From assembly GCA_013791585.1 (NCBI GenBank), contig VMTK01000061.1, positions 1 to 59,777 on the forward strand: a stretch of 59,777 bases of DNA, written 5' to 3'. A model generated the notes under the pieces. It worked only from the letters and a program-made list of their open reading frames with translations. It did no database searches and was not told the origin of the DNA. Position numbers and translations under genes: made by a program. Of the stretch, positions 3,940 to 53,875 are shown piece by piece. How positions within the stretch are numbered: position 1 is the stretch's first letter; each line of letters opens with the position of its first letter. Source of the stretch: Candidatus Falkowbacteria bacterium (lineage in GTDB: Bacteria; Patescibacteriota; Patescibacteriia; Patescibacteriales; VMTK01).

Positions 3940-3993
3940 ATGAAAGAGTTTCTTGCGAAAATTTTAATTGAAATAAGGAGGAAAATATTATGA
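3940..3993 (+). CDS. 17-codon upstream ORF (MKEFLAKILIEIRRKIL) coupled to the radical SAM gene
   Basis: AAGGAG lies 7 nt upstream of the ATG at 3940. The TGA stop at 3991-3993 overlaps the ATG of the next gene (TTATGA). The peptide is predicted to be an amphipathic helix. Confidence 0.25.
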   Translation: MKEFLAKILIEIRRKIL

Positions 3994-5483
3994 AAGTGCT
4001 TTTTGTATATCCAAATTTAGGATGGGGCGTATCTCCCTGCATGGGCATTGCGACACTCTCAGCTGTTCTCAAAAATAAATCACATAATGTTAAATTGATA
4101 TATCTAAATGAATTTATGGGGTTTCCGCTTGACTTAATGAAAATAAAAGGAACTATCGAAGATTACAATCCTGATCTTATTGGGTTTTCAACGACAACAA
4201 ATCAATTTACTATAGCCATAGAAGTTGCTCAGTTTATAAAACGAAAGGTTAATAAAAAAATTCCTATATTATTTGGAGGAATGCATGCGACTATGAATCC
4301 GAAGGAAACGCTTAACCATAGCTGTGTGGATATGATTATTTTAGGAGAAGGTGAAGAGGCGATTCTCGAGCTGGCAGAAAGGATGCAAAAAAATCAGGAT
4401 ATCAGCAAAGTTAAAAATCTATGGTTAAAGAAAGAAAAACAAATTATAGAAAATGGTCTGAGGCCTTATGTGTCTTTAGAAACATTGCCATTTATGGATG
4501 TTGCTGTAATGGATTATCAAAAAGTTATAGATCATCGCAATGGTTGGGTTGATGTGATGGTAACAAGAGGATGTCCAAGGAATTGTACATATTGTTTTAA
4601 TGATTCATACAAGGCGATGTATGAAAACACATGCGATAAGGCAGGAAAATATGTAAGAGTAGACGATTATTTTAAAACAATAGATGGTATTAAGGATATT
4701 CTAAACAAGTACGACAATATTAAAGCTATAAACTTTTATGATGATGATTTTCTGTTGCCACTTTCTATTATCAATTTCGTTAATTTATTCAAAAGAGAAA
4801 TAAATTTACCCTTTATGATAAATGCTCATGTCAATTCTATAACTGATAAGAATATATCTGCTTTAAAGCATTGTGGTTGCGATTTAATAAAAATTGGTCT
4901 GGAATCAGGTAGTTATCGAATAAGAAAAGATGTTTTAAATCGCCCTATAACTCTTAGGCAATTTATTGAAAAAATAAATATTATTAAAAAATATGGGGTT
5001 AAACTATTCACCTTTAACATGATTGGCTTGCCGACCGAAGAAAAAGAGGATGTATTTGAAACTTTGCGATTGAACGCACAAATACAACCAAATGTCGTAC
5101 GTATTGCGACCTTTTACCCTTACACGGGAACTTCAATTTATTTCTTATGTCAAAAACTGAATCTATTGCAAAAAAATCAGAGTGAAGGACACTTAACATA
5201 CTTCGAAAAGTCCATCTTGAATTTTGACAATCGTTTCAAGTTATTTTTACTAAAAATTCTAAGGTATTTTGATTGTTATTTAAACTATTTTAATACAAAT
5301 ATCTCCTTTTATTATGAAGATATGATAGATAGAATTAAATTGCTTTCAGATCCTGAACTCAATTCTGGTATTATACAAAAAAAACTTCAAAAAGAGATTG
5401 GAGCGATATCAAAAAATTTGTCTTCAGATGGAGTTCCGCACTATGTTAAAAAATTTACCCCTTATTATGCAGTTAGAATATAG
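3990..5483 (+). CDS. B12-binding-domain radical SAM enzyme (class B), orphan copy
   Basis: 497 aa. The N-terminus is a Rossmann-like B12-binding segment (LIGFSTTTNQF...GGMHAT). The CxxxCxxC motif is TRGCPRNCTYCFN. A strong AAGGAGG RBS precedes the gene. Confidence 0.8.
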   Translation: MKVLFVYPNLGWGVSPCMGIATLSAVLKNKSHNVKLIYLNEFMGFPLDLMKIKGTIEDYNPDLIGFSTTTNQFTIAIEVAQFIKRKVNKKIPILFGGMHATMNPKETLNHSCVDMIILGEGEEAILELAERMQKNQDISKVKNLWLKKEKQIIENGLRPYVSLETLPFMDVAVMDYQKVIDHRNGWVDVMVTRGCPRNCTYCFNDSYKAMYENTCDKAGKYVRVDDYFKTIDGIKDILNKYDNIKAINFYDDDFLLPLSIINFVNLFKREINLPFMINAHVNSITDKNISALKHCGCDLIKIGLESGSYRIRKDVLNRPITLRQFIEKINIIKKYGVKLFTFNMIGLPTEEKEDVFETLRLNAQIQPNVVRIATFYPYTGTSIYFLCQKLNLLQKNQSEGHLTYFEKSILNFDNRFKLFLLKILRYFDCYLNYFNTNISFYYEDMIDRIKLLSDPELNSGIIQKKLQKEIGAISKNLSSDGVPHYVKKFTPYYAVRI

Positions 5484-5520
5484 TTGTATTTTTTAAGGGC
5501 TTACGCTTAACAAAATAAAA

Positions 5521-5564
5521 AGAGCAGGACTTGTGATTAACCGCAAGCCCTGCTCTATTTTTTT
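5521..5564. terminator. bidirectional rho-independent terminator between convergent genes
   Basis: A 13-bp stem with one mismatch pairs agagcaggacttg (5521-5533) with caagccctgctct (5544-5556). An A-run lies upstream and a T-run downstream. Confidence 0.6.
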
Positions 5565-17419: not shown

Positions 17420-18001
17420 TCAAGAACAAGAAATCTCACGTCTTACTTTCTTTTGTTTTGCTAAAATTACTACTGCTTCATACGCTCCAAACAAGACGGG
17501 AACATAAAACAAATTGCCTAACAAAGTATTTCTAAAAAACGGCAAGGCCAAAGCATAGCACTGGATTAATCCCGCTATGCTTTTTGCGTACCATGGAGAA
17601 AATTGCCACACCGCCCAATTGGTAACAATGAAAAATATCACGGAGGCAACAATGCTTCCGGCCATAACGGTTTCAAAGCTTTTATGCTTTTTTATAACCA
17701 GCCCGAGCAGGCCGATAATCATATAGCTGCCGTAGACAGCCAAACCCAGCCGCCAATCATAAAAACCGATAAAAAAATCCCCGATCAGCATCGCTATAAT
17801 CGGCAAACCGATCGCGTAGTTCTTGCCCAGATACACTCCGGCAAACAGCGCGATAGCGGCAATCGGCGCGAAATTCCAGGCATGAGGCATTAATCTGCAC
17901 GCTACTCCCAGAAAAATCAGAGCGATTGAAATAATTAATTTTGTTTTGTTGGACATAGTTTTGAAATTAGAAATTAGAAATTTGAAATAATGAAAATGCA
18001 A
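17420..18001 (-). CDS. small polytopic membrane protein, candidate vitamin (cobalamin) transporter component
   Basis: About 178 aa from the likely start MSNKTK at 17956, with 5-6 hydrophobic helices. It is the last gene of the riboswitch-led operon. The function is inferred from context only. Confidence 0.45.
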   Translation of the reverse strand: MHFHYFKFLISNFKTMSNKTKLIISIALIFLGVACRLMPHAWNFAPIAAIALFAGVYLGKNYAIGLPIIAMLIGDFFIGFYDWRLGLAVYGSYMIIGLLGLVIKKHKSFETVMAGSIVASVIFFIVTNWAVWQFSPWYAKSIAGLIQCYALALPFFRNTLLGNLFYVPVLFGAYEAVVILAKQKKVRREISCS

Positions 18002-18496: not shown

Positions 18497-18502
18497 GTTT
18501 CT

Positions 18503-18632
18503 ATTATTTAACTATTTTATTATTTTATTATTTTTATTATTTTATTATTTTTATTATTTTATTATTTTTATTATTTTATTATTTTATTATTTTATTATTT
18601 AATTATTTTTATTATTTAATTATTTTATTATT
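18503..18632. repeat. AT microsatellite, unit ATTATTTT (8 nt, occasional 9-nt units), about 14 copies
   Basis: Seen directly. It fills the gap between two minus-strand genes and runs into the last codons (KKRNNKIIK) of 18612-19112. Confidence 0.9.
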
Positions 18633-19144: not shown

Positions 19145-19266
19145 TTTCTACCGACTTTTAAGTCGGGTTTTGGCGGCTTTAGCCGCCAAGTTTAGTGAAG
19201 CTAAAGCTTCACGAACCCGAGCTAAAGCTCGGTAGAAGTTAGCTTGGGTTTTAAAACCCAAGCTAA
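19145..19266. repeat. nested multi-hairpin palindromic element, copy B3, plus an adjacent 28-nt perfect palindrome
   Basis: tttctaccg-cgacttttaagtcg-ggcggctttagccgcc-gtgaagctaaagcttcac-gagctaaagctc-ggtagaag, followed by ttagcttgggttttaaaacccaagctaa. Confidence 0.8.
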
Positions 19267-19273
19267 CAAAAAG

Positions 19274-21268
19274 CTATCGCGCCCAGAATATTAATTCGCC
19301 TGTTTTAATGCCTGAACCAAAATAATTTTCTGGTATATTTAATTCCGCGTTTACTTCCTTGCTTTCACTCGCCGCAAGAGTATTGCCGAAATTTTGCCAT
19401 ATTTGATTATCAAGCCGTAAATTATTTAAAAATAATAAATCGCCGCTTACGGATGCCGTTATTGTCAAATCAACCGTGCCTGAATTAATAATATCCAATG
19501 ACTGGGACGCGGCATCGCCCGGCTTCATTTTTCCAAAATCAAGCCGGCTGGCTGAAATTTCAAAAATTATTGATTCGCCGGCAACATTGCTATTTTCTGA
19601 CTGGATAATCTCCACGGACAAAGCGATGTTCTGAGATATTCCATCGCCGACAAAAACTTCTTCCTGATTACTGCGGATAAAACTGTCTTTTTCAGCAAAC
19701 AAATTATAATAACCGTCAGGCAATACTGCCATTGCCTGTCCCGAAGCATCAGTTGTGTAATCCTGATCCCCGCCCTTGATGACAGCGTCTTGCAGCGCGT
19801 TCCATGCTTGGCCGTCAAAATATTCAACTGTCATAGCAATGCTCCGGCCTGTTGCTAAATTGTTTGCGCTTACCGACAACCTTGCCGGCTGCCACCCCCA
19901 TTCGCCGTAATACCACAGCACTTCATCGCCTTGAGATAATGTATAATCAGCCGCGCCGATTAACGGAGATTCATAATTCACAAAATACATCCAGCCAATC
20001 ATGCCTGAGCCGGATTCATTGTTTATTTGGCTTAAATAAGATCCAAAAGAAGAATCAGTAATAACATACGAATAGCCGCAAATTTCAGCCGCGTTCTCTA
20101 CGACTTCCAAAGCTGTATCGCCGGCAACATAAACATCGCAAATCATATTGTTCTGACCCTCTATTCTTAAATGATAATCGCCTGAATCCGCGGTCCAATA
20201 GCCAACAGGAAAACTTTTGCCGCTTAAAGCAATAACCGCGTAAGCAGTCATGGCTTTATTGTTCCATTCTGAAGTTCCCGGCTCTACCCACCAAAAACCG
20301 CCGCCAGCATCCTGAAGAGATTCTAAATGGCTGATCGGATTATTGTTGTTTTTGTCCCAATCAGCCGGATTCTGCCCGATTTTATACAAAGCGGAAATAA
20401 CCCAGGAATCAGAGCCGGAATCAGAATCTGTTCCCCAGTCAGACGCTGGATCATACGGAAAACCGCCGTCATTGTTTTGGCTTAATTCTAAATAGTTAAC
20501 CGCATTAACAATAACAGAATCCGCAACACTTATTCCAGCTTCAACTAATGCCATAATTGCCGCGGCCGTATCATTGGTATCGCTATCGCCGTTAACAGCA
20601 TAGCCCCAGCCGCCGTCAGTATTTTGATTAGACATTAAATAATTTTTTGCCGCCATTGCCTCGTTTGAATTAACTTCACCAACTGAAGCTAATGCTAAAA
20701 TTGACCAAATATCATCATTAAGCAAGCTTTCATCTCCTATTTGATTATTGTTTAAATAAGTTTTTAATTTAGCGACATAGTCAATATTGCCAAAGGTTTT
20801 AGGATTTTCTCCAACTGCCGCCAATGCCAAAATGGCTTTAGCGTAATCAGTTGCCGATGTTCCTGAAACATTGGTTAAATGATCAGTTGCTATATTGTCT
20901 GCTCCGGCGGCAGATAACGCCTGGGTAATCCACGCGTCTTGCGGCTGGGCTTGCAAATAGACAACAGCGCTTCCAATGTCGGCGACAGCCAAAATCGGAG
21001 AAAAAATTAATGCCAGCGCGATAAATAAACCCCGCACAAAAAAGTGTCGCCCCGACAATCCTGTCGGGATAAACTTGTCAGTGGCATTAGGCCACAGACT
21101 GCGACGATTTATTGCACCCCTAACTTCATTAACCCCATTAGATAATTTATCTAATACGTGATTAGATGCTTTTTTTGTGCGGGGTAAAAATAAAATTTTT
21201 GTTTTCATAAAAAAATCTCTCTTTTCCAAGAGAGAGCTAAAAATAACCGTAAAAAAACGGATATTCAT
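19274..21268 (-). CDS. large secreted transcobalamin-like protein: alpha/alpha-toroid repeats plus a DUF4430 domain plus Ig-like domains
   Basis: 664 aa. Toroid repeats are NQNTDGGWGY, SQNNDGGFPY and LQDAGGGFWW. The DUF4430 motif is GWMYFVNYESPLIGAADYTLSQGDEVLWYY. The C-terminal domains are beta-rich. Confidence 0.65.
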   Translation of the reverse strand: MNIRFFTVIFSSLLEKRDFFMKTKILFLPRTKKASNHVLDKLSNGVNEVRGAINRRSLWPNATDKFIPTGLSGRHFFVRGLFIALALIFSPILAVADIGSAVVYLQAQPQDAWITQALSAAGADNIATDHLTNVSGTSATDYAKAILALAAVGENPKTFGNIDYVAKLKTYLNNNQIGDESLLNDDIWSILALASVGEVNSNEAMAAKNYLMSNQNTDGGWGYAVNGDSDTNDTAAAIMALVEAGISVADSVIVNAVNYLELSQNNDGGFPYDPASDWGTDSDSGSDSWVISALYKIGQNPADWDKNNNNPISHLESLQDAGGGFWWVEPGTSEWNNKAMTAYAVIALSGKSFPVGYWTADSGDYHLRIEGQNNMICDVYVAGDTALEVVENAAEICGYSYVITDSSFGSYLSQINNESGSGMIGWMYFVNYESPLIGAADYTLSQGDEVLWYYGEWGWQPARLSVSANNLATGRSIAMTVEYFDGQAWNALQDAVIKGGDQDYTTDASGQAMAVLPDGYYNLFAEKDSFIRSNQEEVFVGDGISQNIALSVEIIQSENSNVAGESIIFEISASRLDFGKMKPGDAASQSLDIINSGTVDLTITASVSGDLLFLNNLRLDNQIWQNFGNTLAASESKEVNAELNIPENYFGSGIKTGELIFWAR

Positions 21269-21314
21269 TAGTTCTCTAACCTCGAAGAATTTAATGAATT
21301 AATAAAATAATATA

Positions 21315-21412
21315 AGCTATTACCAACTCGTTCTGGCTTATTTCTGAATTTTATCAGAAATTCACAGCTGCGGGACAGCGGAGGATTTTCACCTCGCTTC
21401 GGAAAGTAATAG
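21315..21412 (-). promoter_or_regulatory. cobalamin riboswitch-like aptamer (compact form)
   Basis: Minus strand reads GCUAUUAC-UUUCCGAAGCGAGGUGAAAAUCCUCCGCUGUCCCGCAGCUGUGA-AUUUCUGAUAAAAUUCAGAAAU-AAGCCAGAACGAGUUG-GUAAUAGC. It shows P1 closure, a conserved core and a B12-box-like AGCCAGAA. Confidence 0.7.
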
Positions 21413-21427
21413 CAATTGATTTATGAT

Positions 21428-21456
21428 TATTATATTCTAAAAATTTAAAATAGGCA
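21428..21456 (-). promoter_or_regulatory. sigma70-type promoter TTGCCT-17-TATAAT upstream of the riboswitch
   Basis: The reverse complement of 21451-21456 is TTGCCT. A 17-nt spacer follows. The reverse complement of 21428-21433 is TATAAT. Confidence 0.6.
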
Positions 21457-21486
21457 AGGGTTTATAAAGGATCTACTGATTGTTAG

Positions 21487-21780: not shown

Positions 21781-22029
21781 ATGGAACAAGAAATAAAACC
21801 AAATTCAATATATACAACCAATGAAACGCAAAAGCTGTTAAAAATAAGCAACAGCACTATTAAGCGCATGCTTAAAAACGGCTTGCTAAAAGCCAACAAA
21901 GTAGGCGGGCAATATAGAATCCTTGGAAAGGAAATCTTGCGCTTAGTATCGCCTGAAGCGGAAAAGAAAGCGGTAAAATCATATTTAAAAATAAAAAAGC
22001 AAGTTGTGGATAAAATTAATAAATGGTGA
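21781..22029 (+). CDS. small helix-turn-helix DNA-binding protein (excisionase/MerR-type HTH)
   Basis: 82 aa. TTNETQKLLKISNSTIKRMLKNGLLKANKVGGQYRI. Confidence 0.7.
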   Translation: MEQEIKPNSIYTTNETQKLLKISNSTIKRMLKNGLLKANKVGGQYRILGKEILRLVSPEAEKKAVKSYLKIKKQVVDKINKW

Positions 22030-22090: not shown

Positions 22091-23179
22091 ATGAGAAAAG
22101 CATTGATAACGGGCATAACAGGCCAAGACGGCTCGTATTTATCTGAATTACTATTGGCTAAAGGATATGAAGTCCATGGCATTATTAGGCGCGCCAGCAG
22201 TTTTAACACCGGCCGCATTGATCATCTCTACCAAGCTCCTTGTGAAAATAAAAGAAAATTTATTTTACATTATGGCGACCTGACTGACGCGACTAGTATT
22301 ATTAGGCTGATCAAAAAAATACAGCCGGAAGAAATATATAATCTGGGAGCGCAAAGCCATGTTAAAGTATCTTTTGAATCGCCTGAATACACCGCGAATT
22401 CAGACGCTATCGGAACGCTTCGCATGCTTGAAGCCATAAGATTGTTAGGATTAGAGCGCAAAACAAAATTTTATCAAGCTTCAACCTCTGAAATGTTTGG
22501 AGCCACTCCCCCGCCGCAAGATGAAAATTCTAAATTTTATCCAAGAAGCCCATACGGCGTCGCGAAGCTTTATTCCCACTGGATAACAATAAATTATCGC
22601 GAGGCATATAACATATTTGCTGTTAGCGGAATACTTTTTAACCATGAATCTCCAAGGCGGGGAGAAACTTTTGTGACTAAAAAAATAACAAGGGCTGCCG
22701 CGAGAATAAAATTAGGATTGCAAAAAAAATTATTTCTGGGCAACCTTAACTCAAAACGAGACTGGGGCCACGCGAAGGATTATGTTATGGCAATGCACCT
22801 TATGCTTCAGCAGGAAAAGCCCGATGATTATGTTATCGCCACGGGCAAGCAATATTCCGTCCGCGAATTTTGTGAATTCGCCTTTAAAGAACTGGGCATT
22901 GAAATAATTTGGCAAGGAGAAGGAATTTCTGAAAAAGGAATTGATAAAAGAACCAACGAAACAATAATTGAAGTTCATCCTGATTATTTTAGGCCGACTG
23001 AAGTAAGCTCTCTTCTGGGCAACCCGAAAAAAGCTAAAGAAAAATTAGAATGGAAAGCAAAAATTTCTTTTGAAGATCTGGTTAAAGAAATGGTCCAATG
23101 CGATTTAGAAGAAGCCAGAAGAGAATTGCACCTAAAAAATCACGGTTTTAAAATAAATAATAAACATGAAACCCATTAG
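22091..23179 (+). CDS. gmd: GDP-mannose 4,6-dehydratase
   Basis: 362 aa. [44 protein letters not shown], and the rest of the sequence is also typical of Gmd. Confidence 0.95.
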
Positions 23180-23234
23180 ATATTAAAAAATACCGCGGAA
23201 ACATAATTAAAATAATTTAACAAGTATAAATTCA

Positions 23235-24199
23235 ATGGATACTATGGGAAAAAAATCATCTAACGGGTTAAATAAAAATTCTAAAATTTATGTCGCGGGC
23301 CACCGCGGATTAGTCGGCTCGGCAATAATCCGAAGTCTTATCAAGCAAGGATATAATAATCTAATAACTAAAACCAGGCAAGAGTTAAATTTGCTTGACG
23401 CGCAAACTGTTGCTGAATTTTTTAAGAAAGAAAAGCCGGAATATATATTTCTGGCCGCTGCCAAAGTCGGAGGAATTATGGCAAACAAAACTTATCCGGC
23501 TGAATTTATTTTTGAAAATTTGACAATACAAAACAACATCATCCATAACGCTTATTTGAATAAAGTAAAAAAACTTTTATTTTTGGGCAGTTCCTGCATC
23601 TACCCCAAATTATCTCCTCAGCCGATTAAAGAAGAATATCTGTTAACATTAGAACTTGAACCAACCAATAAAGCTTACGCGATAGCCAAGATCGCGGGAA
23701 TTGTTATGTGCCAATCATATAATCGCCAATACGGAACCAATTTTATTGTGGCTATGCCGACGAATCTCTACGGGCCAAATGATAATTTTAATTTAGGCAC
23801 ATCGCACGTACTCCCCGCTTTAATGAGAAAATTTCACGAAGCAAAAAAAACGATAAAAAAGAAATTGAAATCTGGGGAACCGGCGTGGCAAGAAGAGAAT
23901 TTTTGCATGTTGATGATCTGGCAAACGCATGCGTATTTTTAATGAACAATTATAATAATTCTGATATAATAAATATTGGAACAGGTGAAGATTTATCAAT
24001 AGAAGAATTAGCGGAAATTATAAGAGAGATTGTTGATTTTAAAGGTAAAATAAAATGGGACTCTTCCAAGCCGGATGGGACGCCAAGAAAATTATTAGAT
24101 GTAAACAAATTACATAAACTAGGATGGAAGCATAAAATTAATTTAGAAAAAGGTATTACAAACATCTATCAATGGTATAAAGAAAACGTAAAAATATAA
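23235..24199 (+). pseudogene. fcl: GDP-L-fucose synthase (GDP-4-keto-6-deoxymannose epimerase/reductase) split by a frameshift in an A8 tract
   Basis: The two ORFs 23235-23942 and 23885-24199 together give a full Fcl ([14 protein letters not shown] ... [22 protein letters not shown]). The frames join if the A-run at 23843-23850 had 9 A's instead of 8. Confidence 0.85.
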
Positions 24200-31046: not shown

Positions 31047-32040
31047 AATTAAACCAAGAATTGATTTAGAAAATAGGACAAAATTAGAAACGGTTATACC
31101 GCTTAGTGTTCCTTTTATCATTTTTGTTGATCCAAGCGATTTATGCAATTTTCGGTGTAAATTTTGTCCTAGCGGAGACATGGCTTTGATGAAAAAAATA
31201 GGCAGAAGTCTTCAGGTTATGAATTTTGAACTATATAAAAAAATCATAGACGATATTTGCGAATTCGAAAAACCCATTAAAGTTTTAAGACTTTATAAAG
31301 ACGGAGAACCACTATTAAATCCGCATTTTGCCGAGATGGTACGATATGCTAAAGAGAAAAAATGTGCCGAGAGAGTAGACACTACAACCAATGCTTCATT
31401 ACTTAACCCAAAAATAAATCTAGAAATTATTGAAGCCGGTCTTGATCGAATTAATATCTCCATAGAGGGCGTTAATGCCGAACAATATTTAGAATTTTCA
31501 AATTATACGATAAATTTTGATAAGTTAGTTGAAAATATACGCCATCTTTATGAAAACAGAAAAAACTGCGAAATAATAATAAAGATACCTGGAGATAATT
31601 TATCTGAAAATGATAAGGAAAAGTTTTATGAAATTTTTGGCGAAATGGCTGACGGCGTATCTATCGAACACACGATGTCATGCTGGCCTGAATTTGATTT
31701 AAAAGGAATTGAAGTTAATCAAGAATTTGGCATATACGGGCAAAAAATAAAAGAAGTTCAGGTTTGTCCCTATGTTTTCTATTCTTTTTCAATTAATTCC
31801 GATGGTCTAGCTAGTCTATGCTTCCTAGATTGGTCAAGAAAACTTATTATTGGTGACGCGAAGAACGAAAGTGTTATAGATATATGGAATGGAAAAAAAC
31901 TTTTAGAATATCAAAAAATGTTTTTACGTAAAGAAAGAAAAAAACACCTCTTCTGTGGTGAGTGTGGTCAAATGTCTCACGGACTGCCTGATGATATTGA
32001 TAATTATGCAGGTGAATTATTAAAAAGGATAAAAAAATAA
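31036..32040 (+). CDS. radical SAM / SPASM-domain enzyme
   Basis: 334 aa. CNFRCKFCP cluster. C-terminal Cys-rich motifs are CPYVF...SLCF...CGECGQ. Confidence 0.75.
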   Translation: MKAKIKPRIDLENRTKLETVIPLSVPFIIFVDPSDLCNFRCKFCPSGDMALMKKIGRSLQVMNFELYKKIIDDICEFEKPIKVLRLYKDGEPLLNPHFAEMVRYAKEKKCAERVDTTTNASLLNPKINLEIIEAGLDRINISIEGVNAEQYLEFSNYTINFDKLVENIRHLYENRKNCEIIIKIPGDNLSENDKEKFYEIFGEMADGVSIEHTMSCWPEFDLKGIEVNQEFGIYGQKIKEVQVCPYVFYSFSINSDGLASLCFLDWSRKLIIGDAKNESVIDIWNGKKLLEYQKMFLRKERKKHLFCGECGQMSHGLPDDIDNYAGELLKRIKK

Positions 32041-33996: not shown

Positions 33997-35613
33997 ATGC
34001 CTGTAAAAATTTTGTTTATTATCCCTCCATATTTTAATATAGAAGATTTTTTGAATCCAAAAAACAACCAAACTCTTCCTGTTTTTACAATTCCTTACGG
34101 TATTCTTTCCATGGAAGCTTACATTAAAGCTAATGCGACAAAGGAGGTTGCTGTTGAACTTTTAGATCTCAACACAGAGGCTTACAAAATTGCTAAAAAT
34201 AACCTGAATGCCACTAATATTCAAAAGGACCTAATGAGTATTGTTTTAGAAAAATTGCAGAGTCCAACAGACATAGTGGGAATTTCTGCACTTTTTAATA
34301 ACAGCTACGAATACTTAAAGGAATTAACCTACACAATAAAAAAAGCACCTATGCCTCCGTTATGTATCGTCGGTGGAGGGCTCGCTTCAAACTTATATCA
34401 AAGAGTATTAAATGATTTCCCGTTAATAGATGGTGTCTGTTTTGCTGAAGGCGAAATTCCTTTGATTGATTTAATTAATTCAGACAATTTTCCCCATCTT
34501 TTAAATGAACACCCCTCTTGGATAACAAAGGAAACCTTAAAAGACGGAAAAATCCCCAGAGCTTCTTATGTAGAGAATCTTGACAATATTCCTATGTCTG
34601 ATTATAGCCTTGTAGATTTAAATAATTACAATGGAAGATCTTTGGATAAACAATATTGTAATCAAAATAACAAAAGAGAAATATCTATCCATACTTCAAG
34701 AGGTTGTCCGTTTAATTGTGTTTTTTGTGCTAATTCTTCCGTTCATGGTAAAATGATTAGATATATGAGTGAAAAAAGAGTTATTTCAGAAGTGGACAAT
34801 ATGATTAACAATTTTGGCATGAATGTTTTATTAATAGAAGACGATCATTTTTTGTCTAACAAAAAAAGAGCGGCTAGAATTTTAGCCGAATTGAACAGAC
34901 GAAACATTAGAATAGAATTTCCAAACGGAATAGCTGTGCATGCTATAGATGAGGAAATAGGTAAATTACTAAAAGAAGCCGGGGTGACTACGGTACAATT
35001 AGCGGTTGAGTCATGTTCTGATTATGTGTTGGAAAAAATTATAAATAAGCCCCATAGAGTTTTTCAAATAAGAAAAACGACAAAGATATTAAAGGAAAAT
35101 GGAATTTTTGTTCATGCTTTCATTGTTCTCGGATTACCAAACGAGATGGATGAACACAGAAAGGAATCATTGGAAATCATAAAAGAAATTGGTTTTGACT
35201 GGGTTTATTTTTTTATTGCGGCACCTATTGCGGGTAGCAGACTTTATAAAGTTTGTGTTGAAAATAATTATCTAGTTGAAAAAGATTTCAAAAACCATAT
35301 TGTTTCCAAAGGATCAATTAAGGCCCCAGGAGTTGATCCCGATGAGATCGAAAAAATCGCATATAAAATGAACCTTGATGTAAATTTTGTTAATAATTCT
35401 AATGTTTTACTGGGTCTTTACGATAGAGCTTTGCCCTATTTTATTCATATTTCTAATAAATATCCTAAACATGCTTTGGCACACTATGTACTTATGAATA
35501 TTTATAAACAAAAAAAAGAAGATGATTTATCAAAAGAACATCATGATATTTATTTGAGCATACTTAAGAAAAGTAAAGGATGGAAAACATATGCCAGCGA
35601 ATTTAATTTATAA
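33997..35613 (+). CDS. B12-binding-domain radical SAM enzyme (class B)
   Basis: 538 aa. N-terminal B12-binding-like domain (IVGISALFNNSYEY...VGGGLAS). Cluster motif SRGCPFNCVFCAN. Confidence 0.8.
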   Translation: MPVKILFIIPPYFNIEDFLNPKNNQTLPVFTIPYGILSMEAYIKANATKEVAVELLDLNTEAYKIAKNNLNATNIQKDLMSIVLEKLQSPTDIVGISALFNNSYEYLKELTYTIKKAPMPPLCIVGGGLASNLYQRVLNDFPLIDGVCFAEGEIPLIDLINSDNFPHLLNEHPSWITKETLKDGKIPRASYVENLDNIPMSDYSLVDLNNYNGRSLDKQYCNQNNKREISIHTSRGCPFNCVFCANSSVHGKMIRYMSEKRVISEVDNMINNFGMNVLLIEDDHFLSNKKRAARILAELNRRNIRIEFPNGIAVHAIDEEIGKLLKEAGVTTVQLAVESCSDYVLEKIINKPHRVFQIRKTTKILKENGIFVHAFIVLGLPNEMDEHRKESLEIIKEIGFDWVYFFIAAPIAGSRLYKVCVENNYLVEKDFKNHIVSKGSIKAPGVDPDEIEKIAYKMNLDVNFVNNSNVLLGLYDRALPYFIHISNKYPKHALAHYVLMNIYKQKKEDDLSKEHHDIYLSILKKSKGWKTYASEFNL

Positions 35614-41715: not shown

Positions 41716-42693
41716 ATGAAACATTTTTTAGCACGGATCAAAAACAAAATATTAAATACATTTTTTAAAAATTATCAATTTACAAAATTTATGCCTAGTA
41801 CATTTTTAATAGAAACGGTACTGGGATGCAATTTAAGGTGCCCGGGGTGCAGTTGGGGAAATAAAACCATCAAAAGAAAAAGCGGTTCAATGAGCTTTGA
41901 GCAATACAAAATAATAGCAGACAAAATTAAACCTTATGCAAAAAGAGTGTACTTAATAAACTGGGGAGAACCCTTGCTTAACAATGATATAATTAAAATT
42001 ATTAATTACACTTCTCATTTTGCTAAAGCAAGTATTAGTACAAATGCTCAATTATTAACTCCGGAATTAGCGGAAAAATTGATAAATTCTGGACTTCATG
42101 ATTTAATAATTTCCATTGACGGAATTACCCAAGAAGTGTACGAAAAATATAGAAAAGGAGGGAGCGTAAAAAAAGCCATTGAGTCTCTTGAACTTTTAGA
42201 CCAAATCAACAAAACTAATGGAAACAAGGTTAAACTAATTCCCCAGTTTATAGTCTTCAAACATAATGAACATGAAATGGAAGAATTTGAAAAAAAATGT
42301 CATCAGCTTGGCTTAGAGCCATATTTTAAAGAACCTTATATCCAAAAAAATTCAGGAGTAGAAATTTCTTCTATAGAAAGATATAAACGAAAACATTATA
42401 AAGATTTAAATACACTTCGAAAAGTCATGAGAGGTTGTATTGATCTTAAAAGCACTATGACGATACTTCTTGATGGCACCATTGTTCCATGTTGTTATGA
42501 TTCACATGGCCAAATAAAGTTTGGGAATATATTTAAAGAAGAATTGTTGGAAATCTGGGATGGTTCTATTTCTACTAATTTTAGAAAAAATCTATATAAT
42601 GGAAATACTCCGTCTTTTTGTGTCAACAACTGCTTATTGTATAATTACGATAACAAAAATAATATTGCCAGCAACAATAATAAAAACCAATAA
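41716..42693 (+). CDS. radical SAM / SPASM-domain enzyme
   Basis: 325 aa. GCNLRCPGC. C-terminal motifs CIDL...VPCCYD...FCVNNC. Confidence 0.75.
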   Translation: MKHFLARIKNKILNTFFKNYQFTKFMPSTFLIETVLGCNLRCPGCSWGNKTIKRKSGSMSFEQYKIIADKIKPYAKRVYLINWGEPLLNNDIIKIINYTSHFAKASISTNAQLLTPELAEKLINSGLHDLIISIDGITQEVYEKYRKGGSVKKAIESLELLDQINKTNGNKVKLIPQFIVFKHNEHEMEEFEKKCHQLGLEPYFKEPYIQKNSGVEISSIERYKRKHYKDLNTLRKVMRGCIDLKSTMTILLDGTIVPCCYDSHGQIKFGNIFKEELLEIWDGSISTNFRKNLYNGNTPSFCVNNCLLYNYDNKNNIASNNNKNQ

Positions 42694-45823: not shown

Positions 45824-47377
45824 ATGATAGTTAGCAACAATAAAAATGGACCGGTAATACTTGTCGCCAAAGATGTAATTTACACCTTTCCTTTCGGCTA
45901 TGCTTACCTATCTGGCTACCTTTTAGAAAAAAACGAAGATGTACAAGTTTTATTCCGTCCTAATAAAAGATCCGGTTATAATCAATTCGTAAAAGATATA
46001 ATTGCCCAGAAACCTTTACTTGTCGGTTTTGGCACCCTTTACCCGGATTTATACGACATTGCTGAAATAATAAAAATATTTAAAAAACTAGGATGTGACT
46101 TTCCGCTAATTATTGGCGGACAGATGGTCACCCCCACTCCGCAATTCGCCATGGAAATAACCAATGCCGATATTGGCGTAATAGGTGAAGGAGAAATTAT
46201 ACTGTATGAACTTGTGCAGGCGTTGCGTGAAAATAATAACTTGCAAGACGTAAAAGGAATTATTTTTAAGAAAGAAAATAAATATATCACTACCGATCCA
46301 GGAGAATACATAAAGGACATGACAAAACTGCCTGCGGTTCCTTATGATTTATTCCCATCAGAAAAATGGATTGACATTGGACGATTTTACATTGATTATA
46401 GTCAACCACATTGGCTATATAATGATCGCGTAGTCGCTATTCATGGAGGCCGAGGTTGCCCATTTAACTGCAATTTTTGCTATCACCATAGCCCTCCCCG
46501 CTATCGAACAGTAGCTAATATGTTTGAAGGGATGGATAAATTACTTAAAAAATATGACGCTAATATGCTCTATTTTGGAGACGATTTAGTCTTAGCTTCT
46601 CCTACTAGAGCTAAAGAATTAATTCAAGCAATTAAAAATTTAAAAAGAAAAATAAGCTATTCTGTTTCGTGCCGTTTTGATATTCTTGAGCGACTTGATG
46701 ATGAGATTCTTGAAGAGATGAAAAATACAGGCTGCCGTATTATGGGTCTGGGGGTAGAATCTGGCTCACAAAAGATTCTGGACATAATTGATAAAAGAAT
46801 AACGGTTGAGCAAATAAAAAAAGGATTACGCCGCTTAAAAACTATTGGTATTTTACCTTCAGTTTCAATTATGGTCGGCCAATATACTGAAACGATTGAC
46901 GACGTACAAAAATCTATGGATTTAATGTTGGAAACGCTAAGACATGATAAAAATATTAATTACGCTTTTACCATCACTACCCCCTTTCCTGGAACTAAAC
47001 TCTATGACATTGCCATGAAAAAAGGTTTAATTAAGAGCCATCTTGATTTTTATAATAAATTCAAACTAGCTACCGATATTAGCCGTCTCTCTGTTAATTT
47101 ATCTGCCATGAGCGATAATGAGGTCGTTGAGATGCGCAATAAATTAGAAGAAACTTATAGACAAGAAAAAAAGAAATTAATTGGAAAAAAAGTTGAAATA
47201 GTAGAACGAACACGGTATTTTGCATTTCGCGTTTACAGGAAATTAGATAAAATAATAATTAGTAAATTTCCAGATAATTTAATATTTAATTTAATAAAAA
47301 AAATATATCATAAATGCCATAATTACGTCCAACTATTATTAGACAAATTAAGATTATATTTATTAGATATAAAATAA
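45824..47377 (+). CDS. B12-binding-domain radical SAM enzyme (class B)
   Basis: 517 aa. LVGFGTLYPD...IGGQMVT is the B12-binding-like domain. Cluster motif GRGCPFNCNFCYH. Confidence 0.8.
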   Translation: MIVSNNKNGPVILVAKDVIYTFPFGYAYLSGYLLEKNEDVQVLFRPNKRSGYNQFVKDIIAQKPLLVGFGTLYPDLYDIAEIIKIFKKLGCDFPLIIGGQMVTPTPQFAMEITNADIGVIGEGEIILYELVQALRENNNLQDVKGIIFKKENKYITTDPGEYIKDMTKLPAVPYDLFPSEKWIDIGRFYIDYSQPHWLYNDRVVAIHGGRGCPFNCNFCYHHSPPRYRTVANMFEGMDKLLKKYDANMLYFGDDLVLASPTRAKELIQAIKNLKRKISYSVSCRFDILERLDDEILEEMKNTGCRIMGLGVESGSQKILDIIDKRITVEQIKKGLRRLKTIGILPSVSIMVGQYTETIDDVQKSMDLMLETLRHDKNINYAFTITTPFPGTKLYDIAMKKGLIKSHLDFYNKFKLATDISRLSVNLSAMSDNEVVEMRNKLEETYRQEKKKLIGKKVEIVERTRYFAFRVYRKLDKIIISKFPDNLIFNLIKKIYHKCHNYVQLLLDKLRLYLLDIK

Positions 47378-50464: not shown

Positions 50465-50467
50465 TAT

Positions 50468-51553: not shown

Positions 51554-51554
51554 T

Positions 51555-52403
51555 ATGATCATAGTAAAACTCTACGGCGGTCTTGGCAACCAAATGTTCC
51601 AGTACGCAACTGCTAGACGCCTAGCCATAAAAAATAATACTGAATTAAAAATTGACAGCGCGGATTTTCAGTCAAACAATTATAGGGCTTATGGCCTGAA
51701 TTTTTTTAATATCAAAGAAAATATTGCCGGCCGAAAAGAAATAAATAAAATAAATAATAATTGGCAAAAATTATTAAATGAATTCAGGTCCGCCGATAAA
51801 CAAACAATAATAAAAAACTTTAATTATAATTATAATAAAAGCATATTGAACCTTAAAAATAATAAATATTTAGACGGACATTGGCAAAGTGAAAAATATT
51901 TTTTAGATATCAAGAATATAATTCTAAAAAATTTTACTTTAAAAAATCCCCTCTCAAGCAAAGGACAAGAGATTAAAAAACAAATCGCGGAAAAAAAATC
52001 AATCTCAATCCATGTACGGCGAGGCGATTATATTAATTCACCTAAATTTTCAAAAATTTATAACTTGCTAAATTTAGAGTATTACCGAATAGCAATTAAA
52101 AAGATAAGCGAGCGATTAGAAAATCCTACTTTTTTTATTTTTTCTGACGACACTGAATGGGCGAAAAATAATTTAGTTATTAGCAACTCCGCTGTTCATG
52201 TTAGTCAATCACAACTACCGGCTCACGAAGAACTATTTTTAATGAGTAAATGCCGCCATAACATTATTGCTAATAGCTCATTTTCTTGGTGGGGCGCATG
52301 GCTTAATCAAAATCCTGATAAAATTGTAATCGGCCCGAAAAAATGGTTTAAATTTTGTGATAATGATCGCGAAATCATGCCTAAGAACTGGATAAAATTA
52401 TGA
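51555..52403 (+). CDS. GT11 alpha-1,2-fucosyltransferase
   Basis: 282 aa. LYGGLGNQMFQYA, SIHVRRGDY, SSFSWWGAWL. Confidence 0.9.
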   Translation: MIIVKLYGGLGNQMFQYATARRLAIKNNTELKIDSADFQSNNYRAYGLNFFNIKENIAGRKEINKINNNWQKLLNEFRSADKQTIIKNFNYNYNKSILNLKNNKYLDGHWQSEKYFLDIKNIILKNFTLKNPLSSKGQEIKKQIAEKKSISIHVRRGDYINSPKFSKIYNLLNLEYYRIAIKKISERLENPTFFIFSDDTEWAKNNLVISNSAVHVSQSQLPAHEELFLMSKCRHNIIANSSFSWWGAWLNQNPDKIVIGPKKWFKFCDNDREIMPKNWIKL

Positions 52404-53875
52404 AAATACTATTGATACAACCTCCTTTTTACGGTTTCCAAAATATAATAAGTAACCGACTATATCTCGGCCTTGCTTATTTAGGCGCAGTCTTAGAAAA
52501 AGAAAAACATGAAGTATTAATTTTAAACGGTGAATTATATTTTGATAAAATAAAAGGAGTTAACGAAAAAATTACAATCAACGCGGATGATTATGGTAAA
52601 AAATTTACTCGCGATCATTATGTTTATCAAAAAATATTAAAAGACATAAGCGAATTTAAACCCGACATTATTGCTATTTCTTTTATGACTGCCGTGTCAA
52701 CATCGGCTTATTATTTAGCGCAATATATAAAAAAATCATTGCCGGATGTTCCCTTAATTGCAGGCGGTATTCATCCGACTCTAGTGCCAAACGAACCATT
52801 AAAAAATAATTTTGATTTTACTGTACGTGGTGAAGGAGAAATTACTACTGTTGAATTAATAAACTATATTAACAATAAAAAAGATATAGAAAAAATAACC
52901 GGTATTTCTTACAAAAAAAACGGACAAATAGTATGTAATGAAGATCGGCCATTAATCACGGACTTAGATACGCTCCCATTCCCAGCTTTTTATTTAATGA
53001 AAGATTATAAAAAAAATACTCATTCCTGCAAAGGCATTATCACTTCCCGAGGATGTCCTTTCGCATGCACTTATTGCGCTTCTAAACTGCTATGGACGCA
53101 AAAAGTCCGTTTTAGATCACCGCAAAATGTGGTTAATGAAATAATTGACAGGCACAAAAAATATAATATAACATCTTTTGCTTTTCATGATGACACATTT
53201 ACTTTAAGACAAAGCTATGTAAAAGAATTCTGCCAGTTAGCATTATCCTTAGATTTCAAAATTACTTGGCACTGCGATACGCGCGTAGACACTATTGATT
53301 TACCGCTATTAAAACTAATGCATAAAGCAGGATGCCGCCATATTTATCTCGGATTGGAAAGCGGCAGCCCGAAAATACAAAAATTAATTAAAAAAAATAT
53401 AAACACCGAAAAGGTTAAACAAGCGATAATCCTATCCAGACGCGCTGGAATTGAGACAACGGTTTATTTTATGGCCGGTTTTCCAGACGAAACCGAAGAA
53501 GATATTAAACTCAGTATCAAGGCCATGAAGGAGCTATCGCCTGATTATGTAATTTGGAGCATATTAACGCCCTACCCCGGCACGGAGGTTTGGGAAATTG
53601 CTAAAAAACAAGGATTAGTAGATATTAATAACTGTGATTGGGAAAAATATTTCCACCATTATAATCAAGGTTGTTTTTTTAAAACTATTCCGGAAGAAAA
53701 ATGGAATAGCTTGATTGAGAGTATTCGCCGAGAAGAACAAAAAATAAACAACCAGCTAACTTTGCTAAAAACTAAAAAAAATATTAGAAATAAATTATCA
53801 CAAATTTCGTACGCCCTGCATAACCCTAAAAAATTGTTTAAATACATCAGCAAAAAAATATGCCTCCAAAAGTAA
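52400..53875 (+). CDS. B12-binding-domain radical SAM enzyme (class B)
   Basis: 491 aa. IIAISFMTAVSTSAY...AGGIHPT is the B12-binding-like domain. Cluster motif SRGCPFACTYCAS. Confidence 0.8.
   Translation: MKILLIQPPFYGFQNIISNRLYLGLAYLGAVLEKEKHEVLILNGELYFDKIKGVNEKITINADDYGKKFTRDHYVYQKILKDISEFKPDIIAISFMTAVSTSAYYLAQYIKKSLPDVPLIAGGIHPTLVPNEPLKNNFDFTVRGEGEITTVELINYINNKKDIEKITGISYKKNGQIVCNEDRPLITDLDTLPFPAFYLMKDYKKNTHSCKGIITSRGCPFACTYCASKLLWTQKVRFRSPQNVVNEIIDRHKKYNITSFAFHDDTFTLRQSYVKEFCQLALSLDFKITWHCDTRVDTIDLPLLKLMHKAGCRHIYLGLESGSPKIQKLIKKNINTEKVKQAIILSRRAGIETTVYFMAGFPDETEEDIKLSIKAMKELSPDYVIWSILTPYPGTEVWEIAKKQGLVDINNCDWEKYFHHYNQGCFFKTIPEEKWNSLIESIRREEQKINNQLTLLKTKKNIRNKLSQISYALHNPKKLFKYISKKICLQK

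Follow-up and report, generated by a model that had tools for sequence, protein, structure and literature searches.

We analysed a 59,777-nucleotide stretch of DNA (hereafter the window) from a Falkowbacteria-like Patescibacterium (CPR), in which a four-gene operon on the minus strand, led by a cobalamin riboswitch, lies between a phosphoglycosyl transferase gene and a Wzm/Wzt glycan island. In the reading that we favour, with confidence only slightly better than even, this region comprises two adjoining units, a general B12-scavenging cassette and a Wzm/Wzt glycan locus whose radical SAM enzymes (rSAMs) would use the imported cobalamin. The observations at hand are the gene content, the riboswitch, fold and family assignments and synteny statistics. 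The assignment of the window to its source stems from SecA, whose best matches are Falkowbacteria/Patescibacteria metagenome-assembled genomes (59-74% identity).

A predicted cobalamin uptake cassette

A first-pass annotation had proposed a riboswitch-controlled B12 import operon lying between the transferase and the island. Both its location and its candidate function are borne out by the following features:

15906..17270, plus strand: polyprenyl glycosylphosphotransferase (initiating transferase); PF02397 209.9 bits, TIGR03025 378 bits for a cut-off of 295.6
17420..17956, minus strand: DUF6580 membrane protein, 178 residues from ATG, last cassette gene; PF20221 166 bits
18044..18496, minus strand: small anchored DUF4430 protein, 150 residues, transcobalamin beta-domain-like; PF14478 70 bits
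18612..19112, minus strand: conserved member of the cassette, 166 residues, with an Ig/MSP-like fold behind a signal peptide, anchored in the membrane at its C-terminus
19274..21268, minus strand: intrinsic-factor/transcobalamin-like surface protein, 664 residues, first cassette gene (Pfam, structure model, Foldseek)
21216..21235, minus strand: terminator-like hairpin and U-tract, in the interval between aptamer and first-gene body
21285..21446, minus strand: cobalamin (AdoCbl-type) riboswitch aptamer; Rfam RF00174 and RF01482
21429..21457, minus strand: promoter-like site TTGCCT-17-TATAAT immediately upstream of the aptamer, consensus match only

The riboswitch matches RF00174 at positions 21308-21446 of the minus strand with 32.7 bits, for an Rfam gathering score of 31.5, and RF01482 over 21285-21427 with 43.4 bits, for a cut-off of 50. 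Although this score is weak, it gains support from AdoCbl riboswitches with higher scores (52-71 bits) at the equivalent position in six related genomes (L083, L087, L089, L093, L107, L102) and from the conservation of the riboswitch core in our alignment (A3). The hairpin at 21216..21235 is likely its expression platform.

The 664-residue protein is composed of a signal peptide, an alpha/alpha toroid, a DUF4430 (SLBB) domain and C-terminal Ig-like domains. In a Foldseek search with its structure model (pLDDT 83.7), the 15 best PDB matches were all to intrinsic factor, transcobalamin or haptocorrin, with E-values of 1e-10 to 7e-8 and alignments spanning both domains. Burroughs et al. 2007 (PMC1796856) predicted 'transcobalamin-like' SLBB proteins in bacteria, and the architecture described there corresponds to the one seen here, in which a toroid is followed by a beta-grasp domain and a signal peptide and further Ig-like domains are present. 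However, the identity to intrinsic factor, transcobalamin and haptocorrin is ~15%, the orientation of the domains deviates in the model (high rmsd), two to three additional Ig-like domains are present at the C-terminus, and the putative bacterial binder is encoded together with a membrane transporter in a cassette of four genes. The DUF4430 domains of the cassette show a weak sequence match to transcobalamin beta-domains, and the 150-residue protein, which matches haptocorrin 4KKI with an E-value of 0.0025, is a candidate B12 binder. The 166-residue Ig-like anchored protein is conserved in 18 loci.

When compared with solved structures, the DUF6580 profile (A1) has a sole, weak match (6FNP_A, E 3.7e-4), to ECF-CbrT from Lactobacillus delbrueckii, a vitamin B12 transporter of the ECF type (PDB 6FNP; eLife 2018, PMC5997447). 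In its model (pLDDT 94), the small DUF6580 membrane protein has the predicted helical fold of ECF S-components, RibU, FolT and ThiT being the top Foldseek matches with E-values above 0.09, and it is found under cobalamin riboswitch control with B12-related neighbour genes. Unlike CbrT, to which it is very distant in sequence, it belongs to Pfam family PF20221 and has no EcfA/A'/T module nearby, with no ECF energising module in the window; its partners are extracellular, namely the DUF4430 and transcobalamin-like binders. It is a candidate B12 S-component or transporter. BtuM works alone, and by analogy DUF6580 may do likewise or use a shared module encoded elsewhere. Altogether, these data support the assignment of the operon as a riboswitch-controlled cassette for cobalamin capture and import, with B12 binding and transport as the predicted activities of its proteins.

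The glycan island

The island consists of a core-like head (gmd, fcl, wzm and wzt) followed by a variable, low-GC body of ~32 kb (31% GC vs 39-40% in the core). Apart from the class-B-type rSAM genes listed below, its features include:

21781..22029, plus strand: HTH_17 (excisionase/MerR-like) DNA-binding protein, first island-side ORF; PF12728, precomputed annotation
22091..24199, plus strand: gmd and fcl (GDP-fucose synthesis); TIGR01472 571 bits
24323..26514, plus strand: Wzm/Wzt-type ABC-2 glycan exporter; PF01061, PF00005
26542..31046, plus strand: CDP-hexose branch; TIGR02623 317 bits, TIGR02622 474 bits, each exceeding its cut-off; Pfam
31036..32040, plus strand: radical SAM/SPASM protein 1, lacking a B12 domain
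41716..42693, plus strand: radical SAM/SPASM protein 2, lacking a B12 domain
51555..54891, plus strand: module of GT11 fucosyltransferase, rSAM D and GT2 glycosyltransferase, with overlapping reading frames
54869..56677, minus strand: membrane protein of ~600 residues with ~11 transmembrane helices, without a family match, adjoining the preceding module
59181..59777, no strand given: transposase gene fragment at the right island end (zinc-ribbon transposase-like ORF; MULE/Transposase_mut annotation in L108)

A frameshift at a run of eight A (A8, 23843-23850) divides the fcl gene, a split that other assemblies share, and all assemblies break at the transposase fragment. The CDP-hexose branch codes for a glucose-1-phosphate cytidylyltransferase, a CDP-glucose 4,6-dehydratase, an NDP-hexose C-methyltransferase and RmlC-like and RmlD-like enzymes. 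Building blocks derived from GDP-fucose, CDP-hexose and 3-amino sugars are encoded in the island body, along with three class-B rSAMs, two SPASM rSAMs and no fewer than 12 SAM methyltransferases. The two SPASM rSAMs add to the four rSAMs listed in the first-pass annotation. With its Wzm, Wzt and sugar-nucleotide genes, its many glycosyltransferase and methyltransferase genes, its low-GC variable body and an initiating phosphoglycosyl transferase, the locus resembles ABC-transporter-dependent glycan loci of O-antigen type, from which it differs by its Patescibacterium host, its unusual load of five radical SAM genes and its abundance of methyltransferases.

The class-B-type radical SAM genes

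Four intact ORFs, each with a B12-binding domain and a radical-SAM core, share the motif (T/S/G)RGCP(R/F)xCxxC, as the first-pass annotation had reported. They are given here with the gene that precedes the first of them:

2934..3734, plus strand: 266-residue protein with a signal peptide and ~4 transmembrane helices, without a family match, partner upstream of rSAM A
3990..5483, plus strand: rSAM A, 497 residues, outside the island; PF02310 65.8 bits, PF04055 77.8 bits, TRGCPRNCTYC
33997..35613, plus strand: rSAM B, 538 residues, after two FkbM methyltransferase genes; PF04055 77.1 bits, PF02310 29.5 bits, SRGCPFNCVFC
45824..47377, plus strand: rSAM C, 517 residues, followed by an FkbM-like methyltransferase gene; PF02310 41.9 bits, PF04055 83.4 bits, GRGCPFNCNFC
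52400..53875, plus strand: rSAM D; PF02310 64.7 bits, SRGCPFACTYC

All four score between 77 and 98 bits with PF04055 (Radical_SAM); A, C and D clearly exceed the PF02310 gathering score of 32.1, of which B falls slightly short. Their description as paralogous holds at the superfamily level but no closer, with pairwise identities of 22-30%, and their grouping with the glycan island is valid for three of them. The genes for rSAMs B, C and D sit amid glycosyltransferase, sugar-nucleotide and methyltransferase genes, with ORFs that overlap or nearly abut, but rSAM A and the 266-residue protein are encoded elsewhere, in an insertion of low GC content (30.8%) that separates SecDF from NUDIX/SecA. 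This gene pair recurs in independent assemblies and was not found next to SecA in 80 related genomes.

The chemistry of these enzymes is a guess, since none of them reaches a curated NCBIfam cut-off. GenK and GenD1 of gentamicin are cobalamin-dependent class B radical SAM methylases, a group whose targets are sugars or other unactivated carbons. Like these two and like MgmA, TokK and CysS, the window proteins possess an N-terminal B12-binding domain and a CxxxCxxC radical-SAM core, and their genes have sugar-nucleotide and methyltransferase genes around them; unlike them, they occur in a Wzm/Wzt cell-surface glycan locus rather than an antibiotic cluster and have homologues fused to glycosyltransferases. 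B12-dependent MgmA (9CCB) is the closest solved relative of rSAM A and aligns over both domains of A, C and D, and over the radical-SAM core alone of B; rSAM D also matches CysS, OxsB and TokK.

For the cores of B, C and D, the best solved match is AprD4 (6FD2), the sugar-acting radical SAM diol dehydratase of apramycin, which has a B12-like N-terminal domain. AprD4 and ArsL fall among B12-rSAMs in sequence networks yet bind no cobalamin (PMC12931638). The window rSAMs could similarly harbour degenerate Rossmann domains and make no use of cobalamin, in which case a mobile or hypervariable glycan segment would merely have come to lie beside a cassette serving ribonucleotide reductase. The PF02310 score of rSAM B, the HTH_17 and transposase genes at the island ends, the low island GC and the NrdJ/BtuR synteny of the cassette in relatives (see below) are consistent with such a coincidence, but we deem it unlikely: A, C and D score well over the PF02310 cut-off, and the AprD4 alignments are limited to the core and leave out the N-terminal domain, through which the true B12 enzymes MgmA, CysS, OxsB and TokK do align. 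In addition, the AprD4 family model (NF033070) yields 65-108 bits for B, C and D vs a cut-off of 500, and the independent proximity of DUF6580 and class-B rSAM genes in four other genomes (see below) is hard to explain without B12 use. Judging from their sequences, rSAMs A to D are of the class-B type, with cobalamin as the predicted cofactor and sugars as putative substrates.

A 2026 review of B12-rSAMs (PMC12931638) nowhere mentions glycans or polysaccharides. The best partial NCBIfam matches of the window enzymes include ApyD (RiPP), HpnJ and ladder-lipid (lipid) and BchE (tetrapyrrole) enzymes. Together with the location of rSAM A outside the island, beside a membrane protein gene, these matches might suggest that the substrates of the class-B rSAMs are not glycans but peptides, lipids or cofactors, their position in the island being incidental. 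We find this very improbable overall, although it may hold for rSAM A, as the matches are far below the cut-offs, rSAMs B, C and D are tightly embedded in glycan genes, and we saw no precursor-peptide-like context. Moreover, the GT11-rSAM-GT2 module is conserved in L149 (47, 60 and 47% identity, respectively), and homologues of rSAM D are fused to GT2 in L150, to GT4 in L151, and also to TylF-type methyltransferases. The conserved module and the glycosyltransferase fusions support a link of the rSAM D family with glycan synthesis. The ~600-residue membrane protein has a 38% identical neighbour at the L149 module and is possibly a GT-C-like transferase or ligase.

Relation between the cassette and the island

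The cassette is conserved across Patescibacteria. A census of 94 DUF6580 loci identified DUF4430 in the neighbourhood of 66, the adenosyltransferase BtuR in 24, the class II ribonucleotide reductase NrdJ in 15 (the latter two by Pfam) and class-B rSAMs in 4. The first-pass annotation had viewed the uptake operon, the transferase and the island as a syntenic supply-and-consumer supercluster, that is, as one selected, co-inherited unit in which B12 import chiefly feeds glycan decoration. The gene order of the window fits this proposal, as does the conservation of the transferase-cassette adjacency in L081 (about 95-96% identity). So does the situation in L088, L099, L100 and L105, where DUF6580 or the whole cassette lies 31-1149 nt from class-B rSAM genes amid glycosyltransferase genes; a rough placement test for this proximity gave p ~0.002. 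We nevertheless consider a dedicated supercluster rather improbable. Among the conserved neighbours of the cassette, NrdJ and BtuR predominate, the transferase is found near DUF6580 in a single one of 27 close loci, and in L149-L151, three glycan clusters rich in class-B rSAMs, DUF6580 was not found within 10 kb. Furthermore, the transferase gene is convergent with the cassette, which is itself divergent from the island, and the riboswitch controls the cassette alone, not the transferase or the island. At 39.1% GC, the cassette is core-like, and it is equipped with a promoter, a riboswitch and a terminator of its own. A hairpin repeat that occupies intergenic sites in the core genome is found on either side of the cassette and inside it but does not occur in the island. 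The low-GC island is a transcription unit separate from the cassette.

In our preferred model of two adjoining units, the first would be a core-genome scavenging cassette that the riboswitch shuts off at high B12. The intrinsic-factor/transcobalamin-like surface protein and the small DUF4430 protein would catch extracellular corrinoid, and import would proceed via DUF6580, with its ECF S-component fold and distant kinship to the B12 S-component CbrT. The second would be an ABC-transporter-dependent glycan locus whose class-B rSAMs most likely modify sugars, or the lipid-linked glycan as it grows, by radical chemistry; our favoured guess is methylation at an unactivated carbon. The host is described as a tiny-genome Patescibacteria (CPR) bacterium. 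To our knowledge, Patescibacteria lack cofactor synthesis, and domain and family searches of the window ORFs detected no corrin biosynthesis gene, in agreement with the first-pass annotation. We infer that B12 synthesis is absent from the genome, in which case the rSAMs would obtain cobalamin by import alone. The dependence would be one-way, with the glycan enzymes needing the cassette and the cassette providing a general B12 supply, and the adjacency of the two units in this species lineage would be mere neighbourhood. In relatives, the cassette usually lies next to NrdJ and BtuR.

The proposed dependence of glycan decoration on scavenged cobalamin is partly supported, by the riboswitch-controlled cassette, the class-B type of the rSAMs, the rSAM D module and fusions, the placement of the organism in Patescibacteria and the four adjacent loci in other genomes. 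As a B12-sensing uptake cassette lies beside an island with probably B12-dependent rSAMs, the surface sugars of this bacterium plausibly depend on scavenged B12.

The cassette and its genomic setting

The SecA protein encoded in the window (6148-9090) shares 59-74% identity with SecA of Candidatus Falkowbacteria and of other Patescibacteria metagenome-assembled genomes. The same organism is also represented in assemblies GCA_018899775.1 and GCA_018900375.1 and in the metagenome contig ERZ27247111 k141_130875, of whose 117,181 nt the window represents the final 59,777. The 10 kb to the left of the window harbour genes for SecF, ClpB, a P-type ATPase, DivIC and an NYN protein, and no B12-related genes. 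Patescibacteria generally lack cofactor synthesis, and this genome would be expected to lack cob/cbi genes.

The first-pass annotation had pointed out that four class-B-type radical SAM genes occur in this stretch together with a putative B12-capture operon (hereafter the cassette), located between a polyprenyl glycosylphosphotransferase gene (15906-17270, plus strand) and a glycan island (from 21781). This arrangement is correctly described and is clearly not due to chance. Elsewhere, the periplasmic region of SecD (632-2686, minus strand) is interrupted by two PPIC-type peptidyl-prolyl isomerase domains, so that a translocon subunit is, unusually, fused to a folding catalyst. Between the genes for DNA polymerase III delta' and the phosphoglycosyl transferase, 14659-15606 (minus strand) encodes a protein that combines Fic/DOC and HTH_3 domains and is 99% conserved in the sister genome L081.

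The cassette is headed by a cobalamin riboswitch (21308-21446, minus strand), which passes the RF00174 gathering score only marginally (32.7 vs 31.5; Rfam clan CL00101), while the AdoCbl model RF01482 scores 43.4 bits over 21285-21427 for a gathering score of 50. In six other loci (L083, L087, L089, L093, L102 and L107), the orthologous cassette likewise has an RF01482 riboswitch, of 52-71 bits, in this upstream position, and the aptamer core is conserved in the riboswitch alignment, A3. The aptamer is flanked by a promoter-like site (21457-21429) on its upstream side and by a terminator hairpin with a U-tract (21235-21216) on its downstream side. Together, these features make the riboswitch call secure despite its marginal score; a chance match, which the weak score might suggest, is ruled out by the orthologous riboswitches and the conserved core.

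The four genes of the cassette are as follows.

19274-21268, minus strand: gene 1, 664-aa protein with alpha/alpha toroid, DUF4430 and Ig-like domains (Pfam)
18612-19112, minus strand: gene 2, anchored Ig/MSP-like protein, conserved
18044-18496, minus strand: gene 3, small anchored DUF4430 protein with a weak PDB match to haptocorrin (E 0.0025)
17420-17956, minus strand: gene 4, DUF6580 membrane protein, characterized with a profile of homologues (A1) and a model

Modelled with AlphaFold from 32 homologues, the 664-aa protein reaches a mean pLDDT of 83.7. The model's best 15 PDB matches in Foldseek are human intrinsic factor, transcobalamin and haptocorrin (E 1e-10 to 7e-8, 360-450 aligned columns), the low TM-scores being accounted for by a different relative orientation of the domains. 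The succession of a toroid and a DUF4430/SLBB beta-grasp domain is the two-domain architecture of transcobalamin/intrinsic factor-like binders, and a bacterial toroid-SLBB architecture has been predicted computationally (Burroughs et al. 2007, PMC1796856). We regard this protein as a candidate cobalamin binder, for which the support comes from riboswitch control and from synteny with BtuR and NrdJ (see below).

The DUF6580 protein, named 'DUF6580 family putative transport protein' by NCBI, is a small, all-helical membrane protein of approximately 180 residues with an S-component fold. The called gene is the 178-aa form starting at ATG; an exact-match search with the 193-aa ORF starting at TTG gave no match. 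Searching with profile A1 (32 homologues) yielded a sole PDB match, 6FNP chain A (E 3.7e-4, 23.6 bits), for which the single-sequence E value is 0.18; 6FNP is the vitamin B12 transporter ECF-CbrT (PMC5997447). Of the nine best Foldseek matches of the model (pLDDT 94), eight are S-components, with TM-scores of 0.46-0.62, probabilities of 0.57-1.0 and E values of 0.09 or above, and the model most resembles the ECF S-components RibU, FolT, ThiT and PanT. Pfam and NCBIfam scans revealed no EcfA/EcfA'/EcfT partner module within the window, and we found no mention of DUF6580 in the literature searched. Genes 2 (166 aa) and 3 are separated by a tandem array, (TATTATTT)n, of approximately 16 copies (18498-18633), at or near which other assemblies of the organism and of its sister species break (L081, L116).

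Class-B radical SAM proteins and the glycan island

The ORF list and the Pfam and NCBIfam scans confirmed that the four class-B-type genes are intact. Two further radical SAM genes of the island lack the cobalamin-binding domain.

3990-5483, plus strand: rSAM A, PF02310 (65.8 bits) and PF04055, motif TRGCPRNCTYC
33997-35613, plus strand: rSAM B, PF02310 (29.5 bits, marginally below the cut-off) and PF04055, motif SRGCPFNCVFC
45824-47377, plus strand: rSAM C, PF02310 (41.9 bits) and PF04055, motif GRGCPFNCNFC
52400-53875, plus strand: rSAM D, PF02310 (64.7 bits) and PF04055, motif SRGCPFACTYC
31036-32040 and 41716-42693: radical SAM/SPASM genes without B12 domain (Pfam/NCBIfam scans)

The radical SAM core scores 77-98 bits with PF04055 in rSAM A-D, each of which has the CxxxCxxC [4Fe-4S] motif. 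A B12-binding-like domain had been ascribed to all four proteins, and all four match PF02310, the N-terminal Rossmann-like cobalamin-binding domain; rSAM A, C and D exceed its gathering score of 32.1 bits, and rSAM B scores marginally below it. The term 'paralogous' is appropriate only in the sense of distant members of one superfamily, as indicated by pairwise identities of 22-30%, which rule out recent duplication. None of the four proteins reaches a curated NCBIfam cut-off (BchE, HpnJ, HpnR, PhpK, ApyD, MgmA, BzaD, AprD4 and others), the best case being rSAM D with BchE (214.5 bits, cut-off 481); all other pairs score lower. Among the nearest solved structures is that of the B12-dependent glutamine C-methyltransferase MgmA (9CCB), whose alignment with rSAM A, C and D spans both domains; for rSAM B it covers the radical SAM core only. 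AprD4 (6FD2) is also among them, aligned across the radical SAM core only. AprD4 is a sugar diol dehydratase that binds no cobalamin, and AprD4 and ArsL illustrate that a B12-like domain alone is no proof of cobalamin use (PMC12931638). Cobalamin use by rSAM A-D should therefore not be taken for granted, and we describe them as probable cobalamin users, with indirect support from the adjacency of DUF6580 to class-B rSAM genes in other genomes (see below).

rSAM A does not belong to the island: it is located 16.3 kb to its left, in an insertion of its own. This segment of 30.8% GC, shared with the gene for a 266-aa membrane protein, lies between SecDF and NUDIX/SecA. A set of 80 related genomes shows no homologue of rSAM A beside SecA; in 13 of the 80, the distance between SecDF and SecA is below 2 kb.

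The island encodes an ABC-2 permease and ATPase pair (PF01061 and PF00005, 24323-26514), which together with the glycosyltransferases and the transferase at 15906-17270 identifies a Wzm/Wzt locus. Its glycosyltransferases belong to families GT1, GT2, GT10 and GT11, those of GT10 and GT11 being fucosyltransferases. Further genes are for GDP-fucose synthesis, a CDP-glucose pathway with an NDP-hexose C-methyltransferase, FdtA/DegT amino-sugar synthesis and at least 12 SAM methyltransferases. Directly upstream of rSAM C, an ORF without Pfam match (44996-45823, plus strand) corresponds to NCBIfam TIGR04325 (methyltransferase, LIC12133 family; 240 bits, cut-off 80).

Homologues of rSAM D are 51-74% identical to it. 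A Falkowbacteria locus (L149, JAZDLN010000033.1) retains the order GT11-rSAM-GT2 and the gene for a membrane protein of approximately 600 residues, with identities of 47, 60, 47 and 38%, respectively, and codes for four class-B rSAMs within 21 kb. In L150, rSAM and GT2 form a single 843-aa polypeptide with GT11 upstream, and in L151 (JBGGHJ010000147.1) an rSAM::GT4 fusion is found inside a Wzm/Wzt cluster with further rSAMs. Fusion to a TylF-type methyltransferase also exists in the rSAM D family. Fusions of these kinds point to the glycan itself as what this family acts on. In the sugar-rich context of the island, the simplest proposal for its class-B rSAMs is that they methylate unactivated sugar carbons by radical chemistry; epimerization, dehydration or other radical reactions are further candidates. 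The clusters of L149 and L151 contain two to four class-B rSAM and further rSAM genes within approximately 21 kb, with carbamoyltransferase, asparagine synthase-like and PMT_2 genes, and multi-rSAM glycan loci recur at least there.

In the same locus as the two fucosyltransferase types, the GDP-fucose synthetase gene fcl (23235-24199) is split into pieces of 235 and approximately 85-104 residues by a frameshift in an A8 homopolymer (23843-23850). Two further, independent assemblies have this split as well, so that fcl is either a genuine pseudogene or contains a phase-variable tract or a slippage site. At the right end, a 152-aa ORF (58663-59121, minus strand) is similar to the soluble C-terminal portion of the 602-aa membrane protein (54869-56677). 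It seems to be what is left of a second copy truncated by the neighbouring transposase (59181-59777), at which all contigs carrying the island end.

Neighbourhood of the cassette in related genomes

A census of the genes within approximately 10 kb of DUF6580 covered 94 non-redundant loci in species-representative genomes, almost exclusively of Patescibacteria, with NrdJ and BtuR identified by Pfam. The neighbours include DUF4430 (66/94), the BtuR/CobO adenosyltransferase (24/94), a transcobalamin-like protein (20/94), the class II ribonucleotide reductase NrdJ (15/94), glycan genes (14/94) and class-B rSAMs (only 4/94). Many Patescibacteria have the order class II ribonucleotide reductase (with a TSCPD domain)-BtuR-AdoCbl riboswitch-four-gene cassette, as in L083 (3770-6735) and at equivalent positions in L082, L084-L087, L089, L090, L093, L097, L107 and L164. 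B12 supply and a B12 consumer in DNA precursor synthesis are here joined in one compact unit, which is, from the census, the ancestral and common arrangement of the cassette. That the supply genes adjoin an AdoCbl consumer strongly supports the assignment to B12 uptake; the same synteny shows that glycan synthesis is not the cassette's dedicated purpose. The sister genome JAZDKT01 was not among the matches of an NrdJ scan of species-representative genomes.

These data bear on the proposal that cassette and island form a dedicated supply-consumer supercluster. The two adjoin each other in the window, but the proposal is weakened by the scarcity of class-B rSAM neighbours in the census, by the organization of cassette and island as separate transcription units and by a break in composition, and we consider it improbable. 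The GC content is 39.1% in the cassette, which is core-like, 38.6% in the island head (gmd-fcl-wzm-wzt) and 31% in the island body, and the boundaries of the island are an HTH_17 gene on one side and, on the other, the transposase where every assembly breaks. A multi-hairpin palindromic intergenic repeat of approximately 95 nt, resembling a REP or MITE element, is present in the core part of the window at ~13379-13470, 17296-17389, 19145-19241 and 21484-21610 (CCGAGCTTTAGCTCGG, GTGGCTTTAGCCAC, GTGAAGCTAAAGCTTCAC and CCGACTTAAAAGTCGG). Four copies compare with none expected by chance; three flank or interrupt the cassette, and none is in the island. Its core, used as a probe on metagenome contigs, retrieved 25 loci, none of which overlaps the window or contains NrdJ, BtuR or rSAM genes.

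The transferase-cassette adjacency recurs only in L081, a 95%-identical relative. DUF6580 or the cassette lies beside class-B rSAM glycan genes in four other genomes, at distances of 31-1149 nt.

L099: GT4-DUF6580-GT4-rSAM
L100: GT4-DUF6580-GT4-rSAM-rSAM, then GT2, PMT_2 and a third rSAM
L105: methyltransferase-rSAM-DUF6580, with a 31-nt gap
L088 (Falkowbacteria UBA12426): GT2/PMT_2-rSAM-cassette, then one unassigned ORF and a SPASM rSAM

This closeness has p ~0.002 in a rough uniform-placement test. Some Patescibacteria have a real tendency to place the DUF6580 transporter gene beside class-B rSAM glycan genes. In L099, L100 and L105 DUF6580 stands without DUF4430 or riboswitch, and it looks as if a transporter copy had been recruited into a glycan operon. 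Merely coincidental neighbourhood, with rSAMs that do not use B12 at all, has the precedent of AprD4; against it, the four loci are striking, and we hold it to be unlikely, if somewhat less so than the dedicated supercluster.

We thus lean, by a modest degree, towards a general B12-scavenging cassette that supplies the glycan-tailoring rSAMs and others. Repressed through its riboswitch, it would serve probable cobalamin-dependent glycan-tailoring enzymes among other clients; its adjacency to the island would be specific to this lineage, with some other Patescibacteria co-placing DUF6580 and rSAM genes. The earlier suggestion that glycan decoration depends on scavenged cobalamin accordingly keeps in its favour the putative B12 supply, the glycosyltransferase-linked rSAMs and the DUF6580-rSAM adjacencies, but loses the idea of a dedicated supply.

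Meaning for Patescibacteria

The cobalamin riboswitch, transcobalamin-like SLBB proteins, the ECF S-component fold, class-B rSAMs and Wzm/Wzt loci are already known kinds. In the literature searched, three points are apparently undescribed: that DUF6580 may be a B12 transporter resembling CbrT, the cassette of four genes in Patescibacteria, and the linkage or fusion of class-B rSAMs to glycosyltransferases within surface-glycan loci. Our searches found nothing on Patescibacteria with cobalamin and radical SAM or on cobalamin-dependent radical SAM with O-antigen, and nothing useful on the Candidate Phyla Radiation and ribonucleotide reductase.

A broader reading, which we offer tentatively, joins B12-rSAM tailoring of surface glycans in Patescibacteria, DUF6580 B12 transporters of S-component fold and a B12-conditional surface coat. 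The rSAMs, some of them fused to or translationally coupled with glycosyltransferases (GT11-rSAM-GT2), would use radical chemistry to decorate the glycans of the cell surface, for instance with C-methyl branches, an enzymology not known to be described for surface polysaccharides. DUF6580, a so far unrecognised transporter family fed by bacterial intrinsic factor-like binders, would have been recruited straight into glycan operons in some lineages, and the coat of the episymbiont would be conditional on B12 from the host or the community.

Probable functions emerge for two DUF-named families: B12 transport for DUF6580, and for the DUF4430/toroid proteins a role like that of intrinsic factor, as its counterparts in bacteria. 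The glycosyltransferase-linked class-B radical SAM enzymes, in turn, may offer sugar chemistry that is still unexplored. With their minimal genomes, Patescibacteria rely on other cells, and their surface is what hosts and phages meet. If three to four glycan-tailoring enzymes do need imported B12, the structure of that surface would be tied to a cofactor made only by the community, a concrete and testable dependency.
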